A DNA stretch of 64,000 nt from Savitreella phatthalungensis (taxonomy: Eukaryota). The position numbers were made by a program, and so were the translations under genes. Below the pieces are notes generated by a model. It was not told the origin of the DNA, ran no database searches, and worked only from the letters and a program-made list of their open reading frames with translations. Shown here piece by piece: positions 16,453-52,023 of the stretch. Numbering within the stretch: position 1 is the stretch's first letter; each line of letters begins with the position of its first letter. Where the stretch lies: assembly GCA_051599415.1 (NCBI GenBank), contig AP039692.1, forward strand, positions 620,001 through 684,000, in the 5' to 3' direction.

Positions 16453-16570
16453 CTCCACGATGTAACGATAGAGAACTGACTGGCCTTGTGCGACTGCCCT
16501 GTGACATGTTCAAGCCTTTGATACGTCACAGAACCCCGTGCAGATCATGTGTTAATGGGGGGAAACTGAA

Positions 16571-16620
16571 CTGAGACTCGACTGAGACTGGACTGAGAGG
16601 ACTGAGTGGACTGAGTGGAC
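16571..16620 (+). repeat. Degenerate tandem repeat of GGACTGAG(A/T)-type units (about 5 copies)
   Basis: ctgagactcg actgagactg gactgagagg actgagtgga ctgagtggac. Confidence 0.8.
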
Positions 16621-16685
16621 GTGCACAAATCTCAACATCCACCAATGGTTCATATCCTTTGCCGTGTTCCAACCCAGCACTGTCA

Positions 16686-16935
16686 GACGCCGTCGGATAG
16701 TGGTTATTCCGTCACCTTGCTACGATTTCAGCCAATGAAATGGAAATAGGGTACGGAATTCAAGATCTTTAATGGCGGGGATTAAACGTTCCTCGTCGAC
16801 ACACTAAAAACATCTTCGGATTCCTGAGTCTACTTCAACTCGTTGCACTAATCCTGAATTTGAAAAATAATTCAGGGTATGCTTGCAGCTAGGTGGTGCT
16901 CATTGAGCGCGTGAGTTCGAATCTCACCGGCGTCG
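16686..16935 (+). tRNA. tRNA-Ser (anticodon GCT) with a 168-nt intron at the canonical 37/38 position (exons 16686-16722 and 16891-16935)
   Basis: Acceptor stem GACGCCG/CGGCGTC with G discriminator; D arm GGA-TAGTGGTTAT-TCC; anticodon stem TCACC/GGTGG with loop TT-GCT-A|A; long variable arm GCTC-ATT-GAGC; T arm GTGAG-TTCGAAT-CTCAC; T5 runs immediately downstream. Confidence 0.9.
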
Positions 16936-16942
16936 ACCAGCC

Positions 16943-16954
16943 TTTTTACTTTTT
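16943..16954 (+). terminator. RNA polymerase III terminator (two T5 runs)
   Basis: tttttacttttt starting 8 nt after the tRNA 3' end. Confidence 0.75.
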
Positions 16955-17507
16955 CCATCATTTATTCGAAGACTTCCAAGTGCTTTCTTTGACTTGAACT
17001 TTTTCGATTCGGGATGGAGCGAGTGAGTGTACACATGTGCATTCAATTAATTCTAATAGCTTGCTCAATTGCTTCTTGAGCGTCAGTGAATCACATGCAT
17101 GTACATGCACACAGCCTACCTCTGCCAGCTCGATCGGAGACGAACAAGGGATATCCGATCAACATGTGGGTCTACCAAGAGTGCGTTAGGTGTCTCCCGA
17201 TCTCTCATCTCCATCATCCAGAGTGATAAGTCACAAAGTGATACGGCAGTACAATCATAGAGAAGAGCCTGTCTCCAATTCGGTACAGGTCTAGCATTCT
17301 ACTAGTCACCTCGCTAATTCACCAGTCCACCTCACCCTCAAGACACTTTCCGTGCACGAGACCTAGAGACATCTGCACACTACAGCTCGCCGGCTTGGAC
17401 GGGTAACGGACACGAAACTCACAGTCACGCGCCAACTCAAAACTCGCCAAATCTGATTCACCCTTCTTGTGTACATCTCTCACCTCCGTCTGGCAGGCCA
17501 CATCTTT

Positions 17508-17536
17508 ATCAGCATCAGCATCAGCATCAGCATCAG
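17508..17536 (+). repeat. (ATCAGC)n hexamer microsatellite upstream of the Zn2Cys6 gene
   Basis: atcagc x4 plus atcag. Confidence 0.85.
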
Positions 17537-17599
17537 GATCTCACTATCTAAAGAGTCTCCCTTTGTTTCCACACTGGCTATGTCCATTATCGCTTCACC

Positions 17600-19546
17600 A
17601 TGACTGCAGAGTCTCCATTGAATCGGGCCATAACAGCCTGTGCGAGATGTCGTGGACGCAAGACCAAATGTGACCGCAACTTCCCTTCATGCGGCAGTTG
17701 CTCAAAGGCAGGCGTCATCTGTGAAGCGTTAGATCCAGCTACGGGTCGCAACATCCCACGCAGCTATGTTGCGCATCTGGAGGAACAAATCGCAGAGCTG
17801 CAGCAGCGGAATCAGGAGCTCAGAGAGGCAGCAGCAACTGCCTCCCCTAGACAGCCCAGGGGAGATGGTAGTGATGCAGGCTCAGCCACAGACTCATCCA
17901 ACCAGCAGCTCAGCTTTGCAAAGATGATGTTCACGGCCGTCTCGACAACAGGCCAAGTCAATTCGCTGGAAACGCCATTGCGTCAGACTGTCGTTCCTGC
18001 TCAGCTCCCATCATACGATGAGATGATGCGGCTTCGTCACATATATTTCAACCACTCGAATCCGCAGGTGCCTATTCTCACTTATGACGGATTTGATCAG
18101 TACATGCGCGTCGTCTACCAGGGTGCCGGAGGCGGTGTCAGCGGCATGAGCCTTGGCAATCACAGCGGCCACGACAGCAGCGCAGCAATGGCTGATAGTG
18201 CCGAACAGGCACGAGCAACGCGGTACTTCATACACATTGTCGCTGCCATCGCGCTTGGCAAAGATCCGAGCAACGAGTACGCATCTCAGCATCATGCTGC
18301 AGCACTCAACTACCTGCCGCTCGTCTTCGCCGGACCACGACTCTCGTCCCTCACAGCTGTGCTCCTTCTCAGCTTGTACGCTATGCAGAGGCAATCGTCC
18401 CCAGGTGTGTGGTACACGCTAGGGATTGCCTCACGGCTCATCACAGACTTGGAACTCCAAAGCTTTGTACCGACCCCAGAAGACGATGGCGCTGAGATTC
18501 GCAGACTTTTCTGGTCATGGTACGTGCTCGATAGGCAGGTCTGCACGTATCTCTCGCGTCCGACGAGCATCGCAGACAACGTCATCCATTGTCCGATGCC
18601 TGCAGACCTTGAGCCGACTCAACTGGCGTTCTGTCAGCTGCGCGTCTTGCAATCGGAGATCCAGAGAATCCTGCACCATGCAGACACGCTGCCGCGCGTG
18701 TGGCCGACTTTAGAAGCCTGGCGCGGTGACATGCAGATCCGACTGGATGCTTGGGAGGCATCTCGTCCTCGCACATCAGAGCAAGGAGGCTCAGAATTTG
18801 ACCCGCTCTTCATTACGCTCAACTATCACCAGACCGTGCTGCTCCTTCAAGGATTCTCTGCAAACCTGCCGCCGAATCCGCTGGTCATGCTGCCTGCAGC
18901 CAGAGCCTGCCTCCACATCTACCGCGATCTTTGGCAGGCAGATGCAGTCAACTTTATCTGGCTCGCCGTCCACAACACCTTTGTCGCGGGCTCGTCCTTT
19001 TGCTATGGCTTGCTGTACATGCCCGGTCACCAGCTGTTGGGCGAAGTGCTCGCACAATTAGACGAGGTGACTGAGGTCACGAGAACGATGCTCGAAGGCA
19101 TGTGTGTGAGGTGTCCCGCGACGGCGGACGTCCTCGCCCAATTTGACGGCATTGCAGCAGAAGTCCGGCGCAAGGCCATCTCACGAGACGAGCACCACCA
19201 ACAGCAGCAGCAACGACGCGCTGCATCCGCTGCGACCATCGATCTCTCCCCGCGATTCGCGAACTCCATGCTACTCCGTACGCCCTCTGCAGGCACGTCT
19301 CCGCGAAGGATGCTCGTCAACGATACCAGCGCGAATCCCTACCACCAGCAGAACAACAGCACCGGCCCACCGTCCAGAGATTCATTGGACATCGACTTCA
19401 ACGACCTCATTAACGGACACGGTACCAAAGCACTGTGGGCCGACTTCTTCGCCGGCAGCAACGATCTAATGTGGGGACAAGCTCCTGGCCAAAGCACGTC
19501 TGCAGCACCAACACCTGCACCTCATCATACTCAGCAGGGCTCCTAA
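17600..19546 (+). CDS. Zn(II)2Cys6 transcription factor, PPR1/UaY-like
   Basis: CARCRGRKTKCD..CGSC..C cluster, followed by the DPATGRNIPRSYVAHLE linker typical of Ppr1/UaY; fungal TF domain RRLFWSWYVLDR. Confidence 0.85.
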   Translation: MTAESPLNRAITACARCRGRKTKCDRNFPSCGSCSKAGVICEALDPATGRNIPRSYVAHLEEQIAELQQRNQELREAAATASPRQPRGDGSDAGSATDSSNQQLSFAKMMFTAVSTTGQVNSLETPLRQTVVPAQLPSYDEMMRLRHIYFNHSNPQVPILTYDGFDQYMRVVYQGAGGGVSGMSLGNHSGHDSSAAMADSAEQARATRYFIHIVAAIALGKDPSNEYASQHHAAALNYLPLVFAGPRLSSLTAVLLLSLYAMQRQSSPGVWYTLGIASRLITDLELQSFVPTPEDDGAEIRRLFWSWYVLDRQVCTYLSRPTSIADNVIHCPMPADLEPTQLAFCQLRVLQSEIQRILHHADTLPRVWPTLEAWRGDMQIRLDAWEASRPRTSEQGGSEFDPLFITLNYHQTVLLLQGFSANLPPNPLVMLPAARACLHIYRDLWQADAVNFIWLAVHNTFVAGSSFCYGLLYMPGHQLLGEVLAQLDEVTEVTRTMLEGMCVRCPATADVLAQFDGIAAEVRRKAISRDEHHQQQQQRRAASAATIDLSPRFANSMLLRTPSAGTSPRRMLVNDTSANPYHQQNNSTGPPSRDSLDIDFNDLINGHGTKALWADFFAGSNDLMWGQAPGQSTSAAPTPAPHHTQQGS

Positions 19547-33754: not shown

Positions 33755-35431
33755 TCACTGGTACGCCTCGCTCGATTTCCTATACGCCGCCAAAGCTCTT
33801 TGTTTTGACTCTTCCCAGTTCACGCATGGTTCGGGGTAGCCGAGCTTGGCAAATTCGTCTTTTGACAGCCGTTCGAACGGCATGTAGATTGCGGGCGTAG
33901 GCACATCCTTCAGCTCCGGAACCCACTTACGAATGTAGTCGCCGGTTGAGTCATTCCGTTCCGCCTGGGACACGGGGTGGAAGAGCGTGTAGGAAGGCTG
34001 CCAGGAGATCGTGTTGACGACGGGCGAGTGGTCAATCAGCATCACCGTAAAGTGCCAACAACCGCGTCGCCAATCAATCAGCTGATTTGCTCTCAGAAAG
34101 CTTGCCGTGTTCATCCTCACTCGATTGTGCATCCACGCCTCTGCCTTGAGTTGTCGCATCCCTGCATCTACCAGCGGATAGCCAGTTTTGCCATCCACCC
34201 ATTTTTGCCACTGATCCTCATCCTCCAGCCATTCGATATCAGCCATTCGCAAGGACTGAGGTAAATTCATGAGCATATGAGGCTGAATCGTGATGAGCTG
34301 TTGATAGAATTCGCGGAAGACGATCTCACGAATCCAGCCATTGATACCTGGGTTGCCCTTCGAACTCGCAAAATCAGTCGAGCCGTTGTTGTGTTCTTTG
34401 CACAAGGCGACACATTCACGAGGTGATATGGCGCCTGTGTTGAGGTATAACGACATTCGCGAGGTGGAATCGGATGATGGATCGGACCGTGTATCGGCAT
34501 ATTTGTCAACCATGTCGCTAAGAAATGCTTCCAGTCGCTTTCGCGCTGCTTTGTATCCAGCCGGCCACAGCTTTCGAATCTCCTTTGCATTCTCGTAGTC
34601 CGGCTCAGACGGTACTTTGGAGGAAAATAAGCCCGAGTCTTCAAGCTTGGCTGCTTGCTCGTCCGTGTTGCCACTGGGTGATGGTACTTGTTCCAGCTTC
34701 GCATGTTTCATCTCAGATATCCATTCCCGCCAGTACGGCGTGTATACTTTATGCAAGCCACCCGAGCCAGTATGTAACGTTCCAGGGTCGATGACGCACT
34801 GGTCGTGCAGAAGCTCGAAGTGCACGTCATCCAAATCCGTTGCCAGTGCAATATCTCTGCGCAATTCGTCCACCTCGTACTCGTAGTTCGCGTAGACATG
34901 AGAGATTTCGTGCTTGCGAATGAATGAGATTAAGTCAGGAACGACTGCTTTTCTCGTAGACGCCTCGTGGAAGTACAGTGGGATGTTTTCCTTTCGTAGT
35001 TCGGCCTGGAGATCTGCAACGCTCTTGAGTAAGAAGTCGCGCCGTGCTGGAGCACATCCATGCCATTCGAGATCTTTTGGCGAATGGACAAACAGTGTGA
35101 TCAGCGGCTTGCCAGAGGAATCGGCCTGTTCACTTGCCTTGTGGAGAGCGCGATTGTCCTTCAGCCTGAGGTCCTTGGAGCGGAACCAGTGCAAGATGTT
35201 ACCAACGCTTTTAGGCGATGATCGCTTATTGAGCAAGTCCTCGAGCTGATTGAACGGAGGATCCTCGTCAATTTCCTTCGCCCGCTCGATAGACGGACAC
35301 TTCTGCCATGGTTCAACAGACTGCCGAGCCTTTTTAGCCGGTCTCGAGGCCTCTTTGGCTGAAGCGCGCTTTCCCATTGTGTGGAAAAGTCGTTGTCGCC
35401 ATGTCGTCATCGATTTCAGTCGACCGAACAT
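33755..35431 (-). CDS. Class I CPD photolyase-like cryptochrome/photolyase family protein (divergent C-terminus)
   Basis: HWFRSKDLRLKDNRAL, TSRMS, REFY, GKTGYPLVDAGMRQL, WMHNRVRM and GDYIRKWVPEL. Start codon uncertain. Confidence 0.88.
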   Translation of the reverse strand: MFGRLKSMTTWRQRLFHTMGKRASAKEASRPAKKARQSVEPWQKCPSIERAKEIDEDPPFNQLEDLLNKRSSPKSVGNILHWFRSKDLRLKDNRALHKASEQADSSGKPLITLFVHSPKDLEWHGCAPARRDFLLKSVADLQAELRKENIPLYFHEASTRKAVVPDLISFIRKHEISHVYANYEYEVDELRRDIALATDLDDVHFELLHDQCVIDPGTLHTGSGGLHKVYTPYWREWISEMKHAKLEQVPSPSGNTDEQAAKLEDSGLFSSKVPSEPDYENAKEIRKLWPAGYKAARKRLEAFLSDMVDKYADTRSDPSSDSTSRMSLYLNTGAISPRECVALCKEHNNGSTDFASSKGNPGINGWIREIVFREFYQQLITIQPHMLMNLPQSLRMADIEWLEDEDQWQKWVDGKTGYPLVDAGMRQLKAEAWMHNRVRMNTASFLRANQLIDWRRGCWHFTVMLIDHSPVVNTISWQPSYTLFHPVSQAERNDSTGDYIRKWVPELKDVPTPAIYMPFERLSKDEFAKLGYPEPCVNWEESKQRALAAYRKSSEAYQ

Positions 35432-48563: not shown

Positions 48564-51320
48564 TCAAATGTAGAAGGTGGAATTTGCGATGCGGCTGTGT
48601 ATCTTGCCGTTCCACTTCGGTTCTTCTTGCTGTCCGCGGACCTCGTAGAATTGGTCAACTTGATAGAGGCGAGCGCGTTCGCATAGCAAATCAGCGTAGT
48701 ACGCCGGCGGGCAGATTGAGACTGCCTTCGTCGCGCGAACGTATACGTGCGAGAGTTCGAAAACACCTTGTTGTAGATCGTTTGCGGAGAGGCCAATCTC
48801 GTCGTGCACAAGAATATAGCGGCCGGGGCGACTGGAACCCTGCAAGCCGGCCTGCGCCGTCAGGAAAAAATCATTTAGCCCGCTGTCCGTGACGCCCCGA
48901 TCCACAACGGTACCTGGCGCACAGTTGACGTTCTTTCCCTGGGCATCAGCAGCGCTCGTGGGATAGAAGCGAGTGTGGTGACGCTTAGAGACCACGATCA
49001 TAGCCATCTTAGGCCAATTAGCTTGAGCGCCGTAGAGGCGCGAGAATGCCTGGCGGAAACTCGGTATCTCTTGATTGACAACGATCCTGAGCTGACCCTC
49101 AGACACACCATCACGATAGACGATGACCCGTTTCGGTAACTTGCCTGAGTTTGCGCTTCTGAAGGCCGTCAGACGTTCGACAATCATGTCTGCAAGGTCC
49201 GTTACCATTTCCTTTCGGGACTCCTGGCATCTGATGCTCGCAGGCCATTGTCCGAGCAGCTTGCTTGTGTTTGCAACCACCCCAGCAACCGATGGTGCGC
49301 TCTCGGCACTACCAGGAGCGGGATGCGTCACATCGATCCCGACCAACATCGTTGACTCGTCGATATACTTGAGTGCATCGCGCGTCGTGTGATTGATCCC
49401 ACCACCCTTGGTATTGAACTTCATCGCGATATTCGCGAAGTATTGAGCCTGACCTTGAACTTTTTGCAGCTTTGCCGAAACGCAGCAGACTGTTTGGACG
49501 CCATGTACGACATCTCCGAGATACTTGATCCGCGAATACAGCCAGCGGTCAGCTTCACGCAAGACTACAAGACAAATCTCCACGCCTTTAGCAGCCATTG
49601 CAGCGATTTGCCGTTGGAGCACAGTGAAGTTCGCCTCTCGATTTGTTTGAGTCAACTGCTGTAGAGTAGTTTCGTGGCGATCGGGAAACTTATCGAACAA
49701 TACACCTGATGCTTTGAAGGCCGTCATCAGTGCGGTCACAGTCTCTCTAGGCGTGTCGAGTGACTTTCGTGGTCCGAAATTGATGTCCATCACCGCCCAG
49801 TGCTTGAAACGTGTGCCACGGAAGAAGTGCTTGCCAATGAGGTTCCAGCTTCCTTCCTTTGGAACCATCGTGGCACCACCGTAAGCGATAGTCGGAGCCT
49901 GCAGGATCCTGCCTTGCACGGCAATCATACGTTTGTCAATTTTGATGCCGAAGGTGGCCAATCTCTGCACGTCGTACATGTCTAGTCCTTCGCTCTGAAT
50001 AAAATGCGCGTTGAGATTCGGCGCGCGAGCTGCGGTGAGGATCATCTCCTTTGTTTGATTGGCGTTCAGAATACGCCTAACAGCCTGCCCACGCATCACT
50101 GTGCAAAGCTCGCTTGGGATGTAAATCGGTTTGTCTGGTCGACCAACATTGACGCAAGGAAGGTCGAGCTTGAGCTGAATGCCATGCTGCTTTGCGAAGT
50201 AGTCGTGGACGTTTGTTTTGACACCTTCCACTTCGAAGATTTGATCGCGTGGCGATTTGCCTAGCCCAATGATGGTCTTGACCTTTTTCACTGTAATGCG
50301 TGGGTCGACCGTGCCATCTGCGCGTTTGCCCTTCAAGTACTGCGTCTCGACTTTGAGCAAGCGAATTAAAGCCGGCAGGTCTTGCGGTCGCACCTCTCGC
50401 ATCAAGTCCACGAGAGGCTGCGGCTTGAAAAAGGCTGCATTACAGACGTTGATGTTAAGCAACAGCCTACTTGTGCCACATCTGACAGAGGCGTAGAAGC
50501 CACGCAGGGCACGTAAACCTCCAGAGAGATCGCCCTCTCCAGGAGGGGATTGGTCAGTGAAAAACTTGTTGTCCTGACCAAGGCGGTACACGTTGGATTG
50601 ACGGTTCGCCAGGGATCCTACGACAATGTTCAGAAGCTGTGTCATTTCATCTTTGACCGCGAGCAATTCGCTCGGAGACCTTTGCTTAAGTGCTTCCACC
50701 AATTGAGTTAGCGAAAAGCGACCCGTCTCTTGAATCTTGTAGCTGCCTTTCTCCGAGCTGATTACAGTGGACAAATCCGCTTCCCAAACGGCGATGTCTC
50801 CAGTGGTGACGAGGATGCCGGCGTAGTCACACGCAGTCATCACTTTGCTCAGACGAGGATCAGCCAAAATGTACTCGGCAAGTCTACGCCTCTTTGGACG
50901 ACTGAGGCCTTCTGGTGCGCTGATAGCATAACGATAAAGGTCTCCGCCTTCAGGCTTGAGAAGGAAGTAGTTCGCTAGGAGCGTGATAGGACGGCCGAGG
51001 GTACCGTAGCCAGATCGAGGGGGAAAACTGGCGGTCTTGGTCTTTGGTGCACTCACCCGTAGATTTTCCTCACCAGTCACAACTTTATCGACCGTTGATG
51101 TGCCGATGGCGACAGGACCAGGACGCATAGTGACAGCAAGGGACGACATGCCAGAGGTGACTTGACCGAGTGCAGGACCTCTTGTCTGGGAATTCCCACG
51201 TTCGCTACTCGAATGACCTCCGCGTCCGCCATAAGCACCGCGTCCGCTGCCGCGACCACCACGCTCCGCAGTCCCGCCACGACCGGCACCACGACCACGA
51301 TGCCCACCGCGCTGCGACAT
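48564..51320 (-). CDS. Argonaute protein (QDE-2-like), intronless
   Basis: RGG-rich N-terminus, ANYF, PAZ (YF..HGIQL..PCVNVG..YIPSELC) and PIWI motifs VGIDVTHP, KEMV, YRDGVSEGQ, KRHHTRF, PAYYADLLCER, terminal FYI. Confidence 0.95.
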   Translation of the reverse strand: MSQRGGHRGRGAGRGGTAERGGRGSGRGAYGGRGGHSSSERGNSQTRGPALGQVTSGMSSLAVTMRPGPVAIGTSTVDKVVTGEENLRVSAPKTKTASFPPRSGYGTLGRPITLLANYFLLKPEGGDLYRYAISAPEGLSRPKRRRLAEYILADPRLSKVMTACDYAGILVTTGDIAVWEADLSTVISSEKGSYKIQETGRFSLTQLVEALKQRSPSELLAVKDEMTQLLNIVVGSLANRQSNVYRLGQDNKFFTDQSPPGEGDLSGGLRALRGFYASVRCGTSRLLLNINVCNAAFFKPQPLVDLMREVRPQDLPALIRLLKVETQYLKGKRADGTVDPRITVKKVKTIIGLGKSPRDQIFEVEGVKTNVHDYFAKQHGIQLKLDLPCVNVGRPDKPIYIPSELCTVMRGQAVRRILNANQTKEMILTAARAPNLNAHFIQSEGLDMYDVQRLATFGIKIDKRMIAVQGRILQAPTIAYGGATMVPKEGSWNLIGKHFFRGTRFKHWAVMDINFGPRKSLDTPRETVTALMTAFKASGVLFDKFPDRHETTLQQLTQTNREANFTVLQRQIAAMAAKGVEICLVVLREADRWLYSRIKYLGDVVHGVQTVCCVSAKLQKVQGQAQYFANIAMKFNTKGGGINHTTRDALKYIDESTMLVGIDVTHPAPGSAESAPSVAGVVANTSKLLGQWPASIRCQESRKEMVTDLADMIVERLTAFRSANSGKLPKRVIVYRDGVSEGQLRIVVNQEIPSFRQAFSRLYGAQANWPKMAMIVVSKRHHTRFYPTSAADAQGKNVNCAPGTVVDRGVTDSGLNDFFLTAQAGLQGSSRPGRYILVHDEIGLSANDLQQGVFELSHVYVRATKAVSICPPAYYADLLCERARLYQVDQFYEVRGQQEEPKWNGKIHSRIANSTFYI

Positions 51321-52023
51321 GACGACTGAATACCAAAGATCTTTGAATATGTGTGTCTTTCTGTGTTCACAGGCGTTCCTGTGTCGTTTGTCTATGCTGA
51401 AACCCATTCTCACATAAACCTACTATCAATTGGGAACAGGTTTCACCCAACGTGTGGCGAGAATCAGTATAGCGAGCACTCCCTCAGTGAAGCCACGAAG
51501 AGTGATTGATATGGATTGGAATTAATAAAATGCTCTAGGCGGGATTGATTGACTGAAATCGATTGTATTGATGATCATACACATCATCAGCATATTTGTC
51601 TGGCTTTACAAGATATTGCGGTAAAATGAACGTATACATTCGTAGCCATGCAGCACGCGGCTATAGATACATGAGGAGACGTTATTGCGAATCTCAAACG
51701 ATCTCAAGCAAGATTTAGTCATACAAGAAATCTCGTAAGCACTGAAGGTCTGTCTCTGACTCTGCCACTCTGATTCCGCAGACTCGTAAAGCTTATCGGT
51801 CATCGTTGATACAGCCAGTGATCTATGGTCAGCAGCGATCTGAGACATTCCAACCCTAGCATGTAGTGGTGCAAAAACAGTCGTCATGCGCATGTGCGTG
51901 GGCATGCAGCGAAGGAGACAGTAAATAAGTGATCAATTCTAAGAGATTCATATTTTTGAGAATCGGCAAGAGCGTGATGATCGGCCTCTAGTCTAGGCAG
52001 ATTCGCCCGACCGGTGAAAGGTC

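Follow-up and report, generated by a model that had tools for sequence, protein, structure and literature searches.

A gene for tRNA-Ser(GCU) lies on the forward strand of the window (the whole 64,000-nt stretch of DNA analysed here, to which all positions refer), and its two exons are separated by a 168-nt insert placed exactly between tRNA positions 37 and 38 (Table 1). When window positions 16686-16722 and 16891-16935 were joined in a script, ARAGORN recognised the 82-nt product as tRNA-Ser(gct) with a score of 116.5. The joined tRNA has an acceptor stem of 7 bp, a D stem of 3 bp, an anticodon stem and a T stem of 5 bp each, an anticodon loop reading UUGCUAA, a long variable arm of 14 nt and the discriminator G73, presumably as in yeast tRNA-Ser, and all of its acceptor, D, anticodon and T stem pairs are formed (20/20). 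The long variable arm, the 3-bp D stem and the GCU anticodon place it among the class II serine tRNAs, both by ARAGORN and by alignment to fungal Ser(GCU) homologues. The original prediction had described a complete Ser(GCU) cloverleaf split by 168 nt at 37/38 and occupying 16686 to 16935; this gene model was reproduced, and its bounds are exact.

Table 1. Positions of the exons, intron and putative processing and transcription signals of the split tRNA-Ser(GCU) gene.
Feature	Position in window	Strand	Basis
5' exon, tRNA positions 1-37: acceptor 5' strand, D arm, anticodon stem 5' strand, U32-A37	16686..16722	+	sequence, ARAGORN
A-box region, tRNA positions 8-18; off consensus at 9 and 11, identical in fungal homologues	16693..16703	+	sequence; general consensus
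Anticodon GCU	16719-16721	+	within 5' exon
Intron, 168 nt, canonical 37/38 site, single copy in window, predicted to be strongly structured	16723..16890	+	ARAGORN, folding, blastn
Large imperfect intron hairpin (predicted), intron 21-114; 9-bp tip helix, intron 51-59/68-76	16743..16836	+	folding
Perfect 10-bp intron hairpin (predicted), 8-nt loop, intron 129-156	16851..16878	+	folding
Intron bases -6 to -3, GCAG, able to pair with U32-C35 (16717-16720); G16888 is the antepenultimate base	16885..16888	+	sequence, fold
Predicted 3-nt bulge C-U-A38, with the 3' splice site between 16890 and 16891	16889..16891	+	constrained fold
3' exon: A38, anticodon stem 3' strand, variable arm, T arm, acceptor 3' strand, G73	16891..16935	+	sequence, ARAGORN
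B-box region, tRNA positions 52-62, T arm	16914..16924	+	sequence, ARAGORN, Rfam T-arm fragment match; general consensus
Two T5 runs, 16943-16947 and 16950-16954, 8 nt past the discriminator; likely Pol III terminator	16943..16954	+	sequence

Neither ARAGORN in its default mode (without introns) nor Rfam at the gathering threshold returned anything from the 64-kb window (zero tRNA genes and zero matches, respectively), and the expectation that default scanners may miss the gene therefore held for both. When introns of 0-400 nt were allowed, a single tRNA gene was called by ARAGORN across the 64 kb, located at 16686-16935 (+), and its intron was misplaced (Thr(ggt), i157, score 107.2); when the intron was forced to 37/38, the call became Ala(tgc) (i159, score 105.6). 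Relaxing the intron length, as the original prediction had proposed, thus recovered the correct gene bounds but yielded a wrong intron placement and a wrong anticodon. The silence of Rfam is uninformative about the window gene, because at the same threshold Rfam also missed five of five short-intron fungal Ser(GCU) loci (L008, L011, L024, L043 and L056, described below); it found their intronless relative L062. In those fungal loci, introns of merely 10-18 nt suffice to defeat the Rfam tRNA model at the gathering threshold. Standard annotation can in this way lose a tRNA gene outright, with default ARAGORN and Rfam silent and intron-tolerant ARAGORN naming the wrong anticodon, and since the scanners miss or misread the gene, an annotation of this genome could seem to be without a decoder of AGY serine codons. 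In 21 long ORFs of the window, 288 of 1021 serine codons are of this AGY type, and the genome must therefore have one working Ser(GCU) gene or more.

Scans that tolerate introns carry a general risk of false hits, and at a 90% threshold ARAGORN listed 17 weak matches in the window. Nothing else speaks for a chance match or an assembly artefact, an explanation that we regard as extremely improbable. Forty first-order Markov surrogate windows, amounting to 2.56 Mb, produced a single intron-allowed ARAGORN hit with a score of 101, against 107 to 116.5 for the window gene; moreover, contigs of two studies cover the gene, and both exons align with homologous fungal Ser(GCU) genes.

The ORFs adjoining the tRNA gene are fungal and nuclear, and encode a Zn2Cys6 transcription factor, GWT1, a 2-hydroxyacid dehydrogenase, XLF and ING; ORFs for Argonaute, photolyase and PRPP synthetase lie farther away in the window. 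The ORF for PRPP synthetase shares 76% identity with its counterpart in Taphrina deformans, 72% with that of Protomyces lactucae-debilis and 57% with that of Saitoella, and GWT1 has no named relative above 39%. From these identities, the host is a Taphrinomycetes-related fungus without a close named relative. The Argonaute ORF (ArgoN, PAZ, Piwi) is uninterrupted at 48564-51407 (-), and judging by this ORF the Taphrina-related host appears to retain an RNAi component. The DNA photolyase ORF is likewise uninterrupted (33755-35431, -). Short tandem repeats flank the tRNA gene: units of 9-11 nt (~2.6-4.3 copies) occur 66 nt upstream, at 16570-16620, and (ATCAGC)x5.5 is found downstream, at 17508-17540, where contigs of the sequencing runs X1 and X2 end (repeat 17498-17548).

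With internal A and B boxes and a downstream oligo-T, the gene has the composition of an RNA polymerase III type 2 gene. By our own count, against the general consensus sequences, the A-box region fits seven of nine specified positions and the B-box region eight of ten. The two boxes are ~209 bp apart, in agreement with the earlier estimate of ~200 bp; the usual distance is 30-60 bp. Separations of up to ~365 bp are described as compatible with transcription in a paper citing earlier work (PMC12498455). A distance so far above the usual may lower expression of the window gene. The A box had also been called atypical on account of C9 and G11, and this departure is present; however, it is standard within the fungal Ser(GCU) homologues, whether these have short introns or none, and because the same D arm is common to them all, the odd A box is the norm for this tRNA-Ser(GCU) family. 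The claimed T5 terminator was found as two downstream runs (Table 1). Inside the intron the longest T run is 3, so the description of the intron as free of T4 is true, but as an argument for read-through by the polymerase it is worthless, because TTTT is equally absent from 44% of intron shuffles and from 951 of the 1277 168-nt pieces across the window.

The ~209-bp spacing is unusual enough to favour an explanation in which the gene is a crippled or silent copy: expansion of the intron, or an insertion, would have impaired a redundant Ser(GCU) gene, and other copies would supply the tRNA. We consider this main alternative unlikely, for reasons that include the intact terminator and an anticodon-intron helix that can form at the exact canonical place. 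The possible pairs are U32-G16888, U33-A16887, G34-C16886 and C35-G16885, and this canonical helix leaves U36-A37-C(+1) around the 5' splice site. Only two of the 165 intron 4-mers are able to pair with U32-C35, one of them exactly at -6 to -3, and the canonical -6 to -3 pairing arises in 2.6% of 20000 intron shuffles. In a recent review, the anticodon-intron pair is defined as C32 or U32 with an antepenultimate intron A or G, extended over N33-N35 (Phizicky and Hopper 2023, PMC10275265), and the window gene has a potential pair of this definition.

Folding of the precursor was less clear-cut. Left unconstrained, the precursor is predicted to reach its energy minimum (-90.8 kcal/mol) with the D arm and the 5' strand of the anticodon stem paired to the intron and with no cloverleaf, and this disruption of the D arm is a second point in favour of a crippled copy. 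When the four cloverleaf stems were enforced, the best fold reached -83.5 kcal/mol with a non-canonical register at the anticodon loop, and forcing the canonical helix together with both 3-nt bulges gave -79.5 kcal/mol, a penalty of 4 kcal/mol relative to that best fold. By these three energies the canonical splicing substrate is therefore plausible and not predicted outright. The GCAG helix with a 3-nt bulge, which the original prediction had presented as the splicing geometry, was accordingly reproduced as a feasible pairing but is not the predicted minimum-energy fold.

Homologous genes were sought in metagenome contigs. A 24-nt stretch of exon 1, searched for exactly, was absent from these contigs, and a degenerate pattern gave 65 matches at 62 loci, on 27 of which (27/65 matches) ARAGORN called tRNA-Ser(gct). 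The remaining pattern matches are non-tRNA sequence, and in L012 and L013 a tRNA is present only downstream of the match. Most of the 27 genes are intronless and bacterial-, archaeal- or phage-like in look, and the longest intron among them is 26 nt (L053). Eight loci (L008, L009, L011, L024, L029, L043, L056 and L059) have one common mature sequence, whose D arm is identical to that of the window gene, C9 and G11 included, and whose T arm is one base off; T5 runs follow each gene. Parsed at 37/38, their introns measure 13, 13, 18, 16, 16, 15, 10 and 18 nt, in the same order, and represent five distinct introns. For L008, L009 and L056, ARAGORN's own models differ from this parse and score 108.8 and 112.5, against 116.9 for the spliced form. 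The first five bases of the L056 intron are those of the window intron, which we treated as chance, with five distinct introns compared.

The eight loci and the window gene are thus alike in D arm, near-identical T arm, intron site and T5 terminators; in contrast, the introns of the eight loci are 10-18 nt long instead of 168 nt (a difference of ~10x), and their discriminator is A rather than G. An additional relative, L062 (ARAGORN score 111.0), has the same D arm and a T arm identical to that of the window gene but differs from it in having no intron. When the window tRNA is compared with the eight-locus family, 15 of the 20 stem pairs are the same, one shows a one-sided change, four show compensatory changes and none is unpaired, and the tRNA stems therefore remained under selection. 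The exons thus evolved in the manner of a functional tRNA. While the ability of the homologues to manage with introns of 0-18 nt could be taken to favour a crippled copy at the window locus, intact exons with compensatory changes and no unpaired stem position argue against it. From the shared site in these genes, the intron at 37/38 of Ser(GCU) looks ancestral, as in S. cerevisiae.

The eight loci are themselves fungal, as their flanking ORFs (~700 nt examined on each side) hit Pfam PRELI and Gpi16. Among named organisms, the PRELI piece is closest to a Tremellales sp. (65%), Zoopagomycota (49-57%) and Agaricomycotina. Pezizomycotina had been considered as hosts of the short-intron loci, and these relatives did not bear that out.

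DNA from other samples bears on whether the intron has been kept. A contig of run X1, possibly the source of the window DNA, spans the whole tRNA gene, and no sequence of run X4 was placed on the gene stretch. A 266-nt contig of run X3, from another study with another organism label (depth ~2.4), covers 16658-16919 and keeps the intron. Four differing letters were counted in this contig, of which three were located (16746 A>C, 16773 T>C and 16811 C>T), together with an extra A after 16805; all of these located differences are intronic, and the fourth letter lies near a contig end, possibly in the flank or in an exon. Over the flank at 17126-17626, X3 has 17 other letters and 7 gaps, and is therefore a diverged relative and not the same strain. 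When the four intron changes of X3 were applied in a script, the predicted fold was unchanged (-51.2 vs -49.6 kcal/mol); three of the changes fall at unpaired positions and one turns U-G into C-G. That a second sample, locally ~2-5% divergent, still has the intron, and that its changes leave the predicted fold intact, argues further against a crippled copy.

Beyond its length, the most unusual property of the intron is its tight predicted folding. The intron (20% G, 20% C) has a minimum-energy fold of three hairpins at -49.6 kcal/mol, compared with -32.9 ± 3.4 kcal/mol for 200 dinucleotide shuffles, none of which folded as well (0/200; z = -4.89). In a second control the intron had z = -4.8, whereas 150 further 168-nt pieces taken from the window averaged 0.02 (sd 1.09) and went no lower than -3.93. 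A structure of this extremity (z = -4.8) is not expected to persist in a dead gene. It also raises another explanation, compatible with a functional gene: the excised intron may be a selected stable RNA, either a regulatory free intron or a source of small RNAs. In its favour are the two z values, more extreme than those of the 150 window pieces, the natural variant in X3 that keeps the predicted fold, the Argonaute ORF in the same window, and two precedents: tRNA introns released in yeast are reported to act as regulators of mRNAs (PMC13079951), and the large Drosophila tRNA-Tyr intron, whose structure is conserved, gives a stable circular RNA (PMC4536317). Even so, we consider selection for the intron RNA itself rather doubtful, given that the comparison is with one close variant alone and hence holds no real covariation, that compactness may simply be what permits splicing of so long an intron, and that the searches described next offered no family for it.

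In the region 16500-17100, Rfam at E up to 10 gave the intron no family identity. Its sole hit in the intron, a mir-83 hairpin (15.8 bits, E = 6.8, against a gathering score of 44), was rejected, as was an 18-nt tmRNA fragment from the same search, which is the T arm of the tRNA. Inspection of the intron by eye revealed no C/D or H/ACA boxes. Comparison with blastn against the 64-kb window found no repeat longer than 14 nt for the intron or for the gene with 300-nt flanks, the best other intron match being 13 nt, and neither terminal inverted repeats nor a target-site duplication were seen by eye at the intron ends. Short direct repeats noticed by eye at the intron ends were rejected as a target-site duplication because removing one copy leaves an anticodon loop of 6 nt or 9 nt, so that the duplication is not clean. 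The lack of an intron repeat within 64 kb and of insertion marks visible by eye at its ends is a further point against a crippled copy.

The same Rfam search bears on whether the intron could be of a self-splicing group I type, or the gene organellar or prokaryotic, given that group I introns are known from the anticodon loop of some bacterial and plastid tRNA genes. That the 16500-17100 region has no group I match at E up to 10, that 168 nt is below the usual size of group I introns, that the neighbours are nuclear fungal genes (Zn2Cys6 transcription factor, GWT1, Argonaute) and that the 37/38 position comes with a eukaryote-type anticodon-intron pair together make this explanation scarcely credible.

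The length of the intron can be set against published ranges. Canonical tRNA introns span 6-133 nt in eukaryotes and 11-129 nt in archaea according to one review (Yoshihisa 2014, PMC4090602), and 14-60 nt in budding yeast and up to 133 nt elsewhere according to another (Phizicky and Hopper 2023, PMC10275265), while introns of ~40-250 nt were predicted for several metazoan genomes with tRNAscan-SE -L 500 (Lu et al. 2015, PMC4536317). At 168 nt, the window intron is nearly three times the S. cerevisiae maximum and lies above the 6-133 nt of the reviews and inside the range predicted for some metazoans. It is therefore very long for a fungus and not unprecedented; the label "exceptionally long" that the original prediction had given it holds against the yeast and review ranges but not against the metazoan one. 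The literature searched yielded no fungal nuclear tRNA intron of 168-nt size.

Several known systems share features with the gene. tRNA-Ser(GCU) is one of ten intron-bearing tRNA families in S. cerevisiae (PMC6582322). The yeast genes tS(GCU)F and tS(GCU)O resemble the window gene in isoacceptor, in 37/38 intron site and presumably in the Sen, Trl1 and Tpt1 pathway, but yeast tRNA introns are 14-60 nt long, and the host is a budding yeast instead of a Taphrinomycetes-related fungus. The Drosophila tRNA-Tyr gene CR31905 (tric31905) offers another parallel, in that its canonical intron is structured and of outlier length and was missed by an older default scanner: tRNAscan-SE 1.3 overlooked a Drosophila Tyr gene owing to a 113-nt intron, as stated in the tRNAscan-SE 2.0 paper (PMC8450103). 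The 113-nt CR31905 intron has a structure supported by covariation and forms a stable circular RNA, whereas yeast introns are linear (PMC4536317). The window intron is 55 nt longer than the CR31905 intron, which is circularised by a metazoan ligase. In Archaea, a tRNA-Trp intron nests a box C/D small RNA (PMC4090602), and like the window intron it is longer than its peers and has a possible second function; the window intron differs in having no C/D boxes or Rfam snoRNA match, in belonging to a eukaryote and in a predicted bulge-helix-loop instead of a strict bulge-helix-bulge. With the longest catalogued nuclear tRNA introns it shares the canonical position and presumably the protein-spliced kind. 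The window gene is thus an extreme case of a known kind of intron, and points to no new mechanism.

Taken together, the locus is probably a functional nuclear tRNA-Ser(GCU) gene in which an ancestral canonical 37/38 intron has expanded to 168 nt and become, by its predicted fold, highly structured. This reading is supported by the gene's anatomy and homologues, the compensatory changes, the intron retained by a second sample and the predicted structure of that intron, from which we infer transcription, splicing and function. In such a gene, RNA polymerase III would start from the internal A and B boxes ~209 bp apart, pass through an intron that has no T run above 3 and stop at the T5 runs. The mature domain would then form the cloverleaf as the intron collapses into three hairpins, and this collapse could draw both splice sites into a bulge-helix-loop based on the anticodon-intron pair U32-G(-3). 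With the mature domain as its ruler, the fungal splicing endonuclease (Sen2/34/54/15) would cut at 37/38, after which Trl1 and Tpt1 would reunite the halves as an 82-nt tRNA decoding AGY serine codons. If spliced, the gene stretches the known capacity of the fungal Pol III and Sen machinery, with a 168-nt intron and ~209 bp between the boxes.

The exceptional predicted structure also makes the intron a candidate for asking whether long fungal tRNA introns have functions of their own. Extending the possibility of a selected intron RNA, the tRNA gene might double as a Pol III cassette, in which a three-hairpin intron freed by splicing would be kept as a regulatory RNA or an RNAi substrate. We hold this to be quite unlikely; were it true, this fungus would have an equivalent of the metazoan tricRNAs and of the free-intron regulators of budding yeast.

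The metagenome search also touched several loci with features of their own. In L053, from an AT-rich metagenome contig of 329,667 bp, a second copy of the last ~20 bases of the tRNA lies ~90 nt downstream (~700-930), and looks like the scar of an element that integrated at the tRNA 3' end. In L012 (~690-1230), an exon-1-like Ser(GCU) half is followed ~380 nt later by a complete, different and intronless tRNA-Ser(GCU), and this locus, at 35% GC from an AT-rich organism, may be a disrupted or duplicated tRNA locus. L001, L037 and L005 carry tandem units of ~56 nt with a tRNA-half-like stretch (D-loop motif and UUGCUA loop) in which ARAGORN calls no tRNA; the units may be tRNA-derived repeats. 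Tight tRNA arrays (Ser-Leu-Asn-Gly or Asp, and Arg) occur in L014, L017, L026, L033, L047 and L049, and some of these arrays include a tRNA-Asn with a predicted 38-nt intron.
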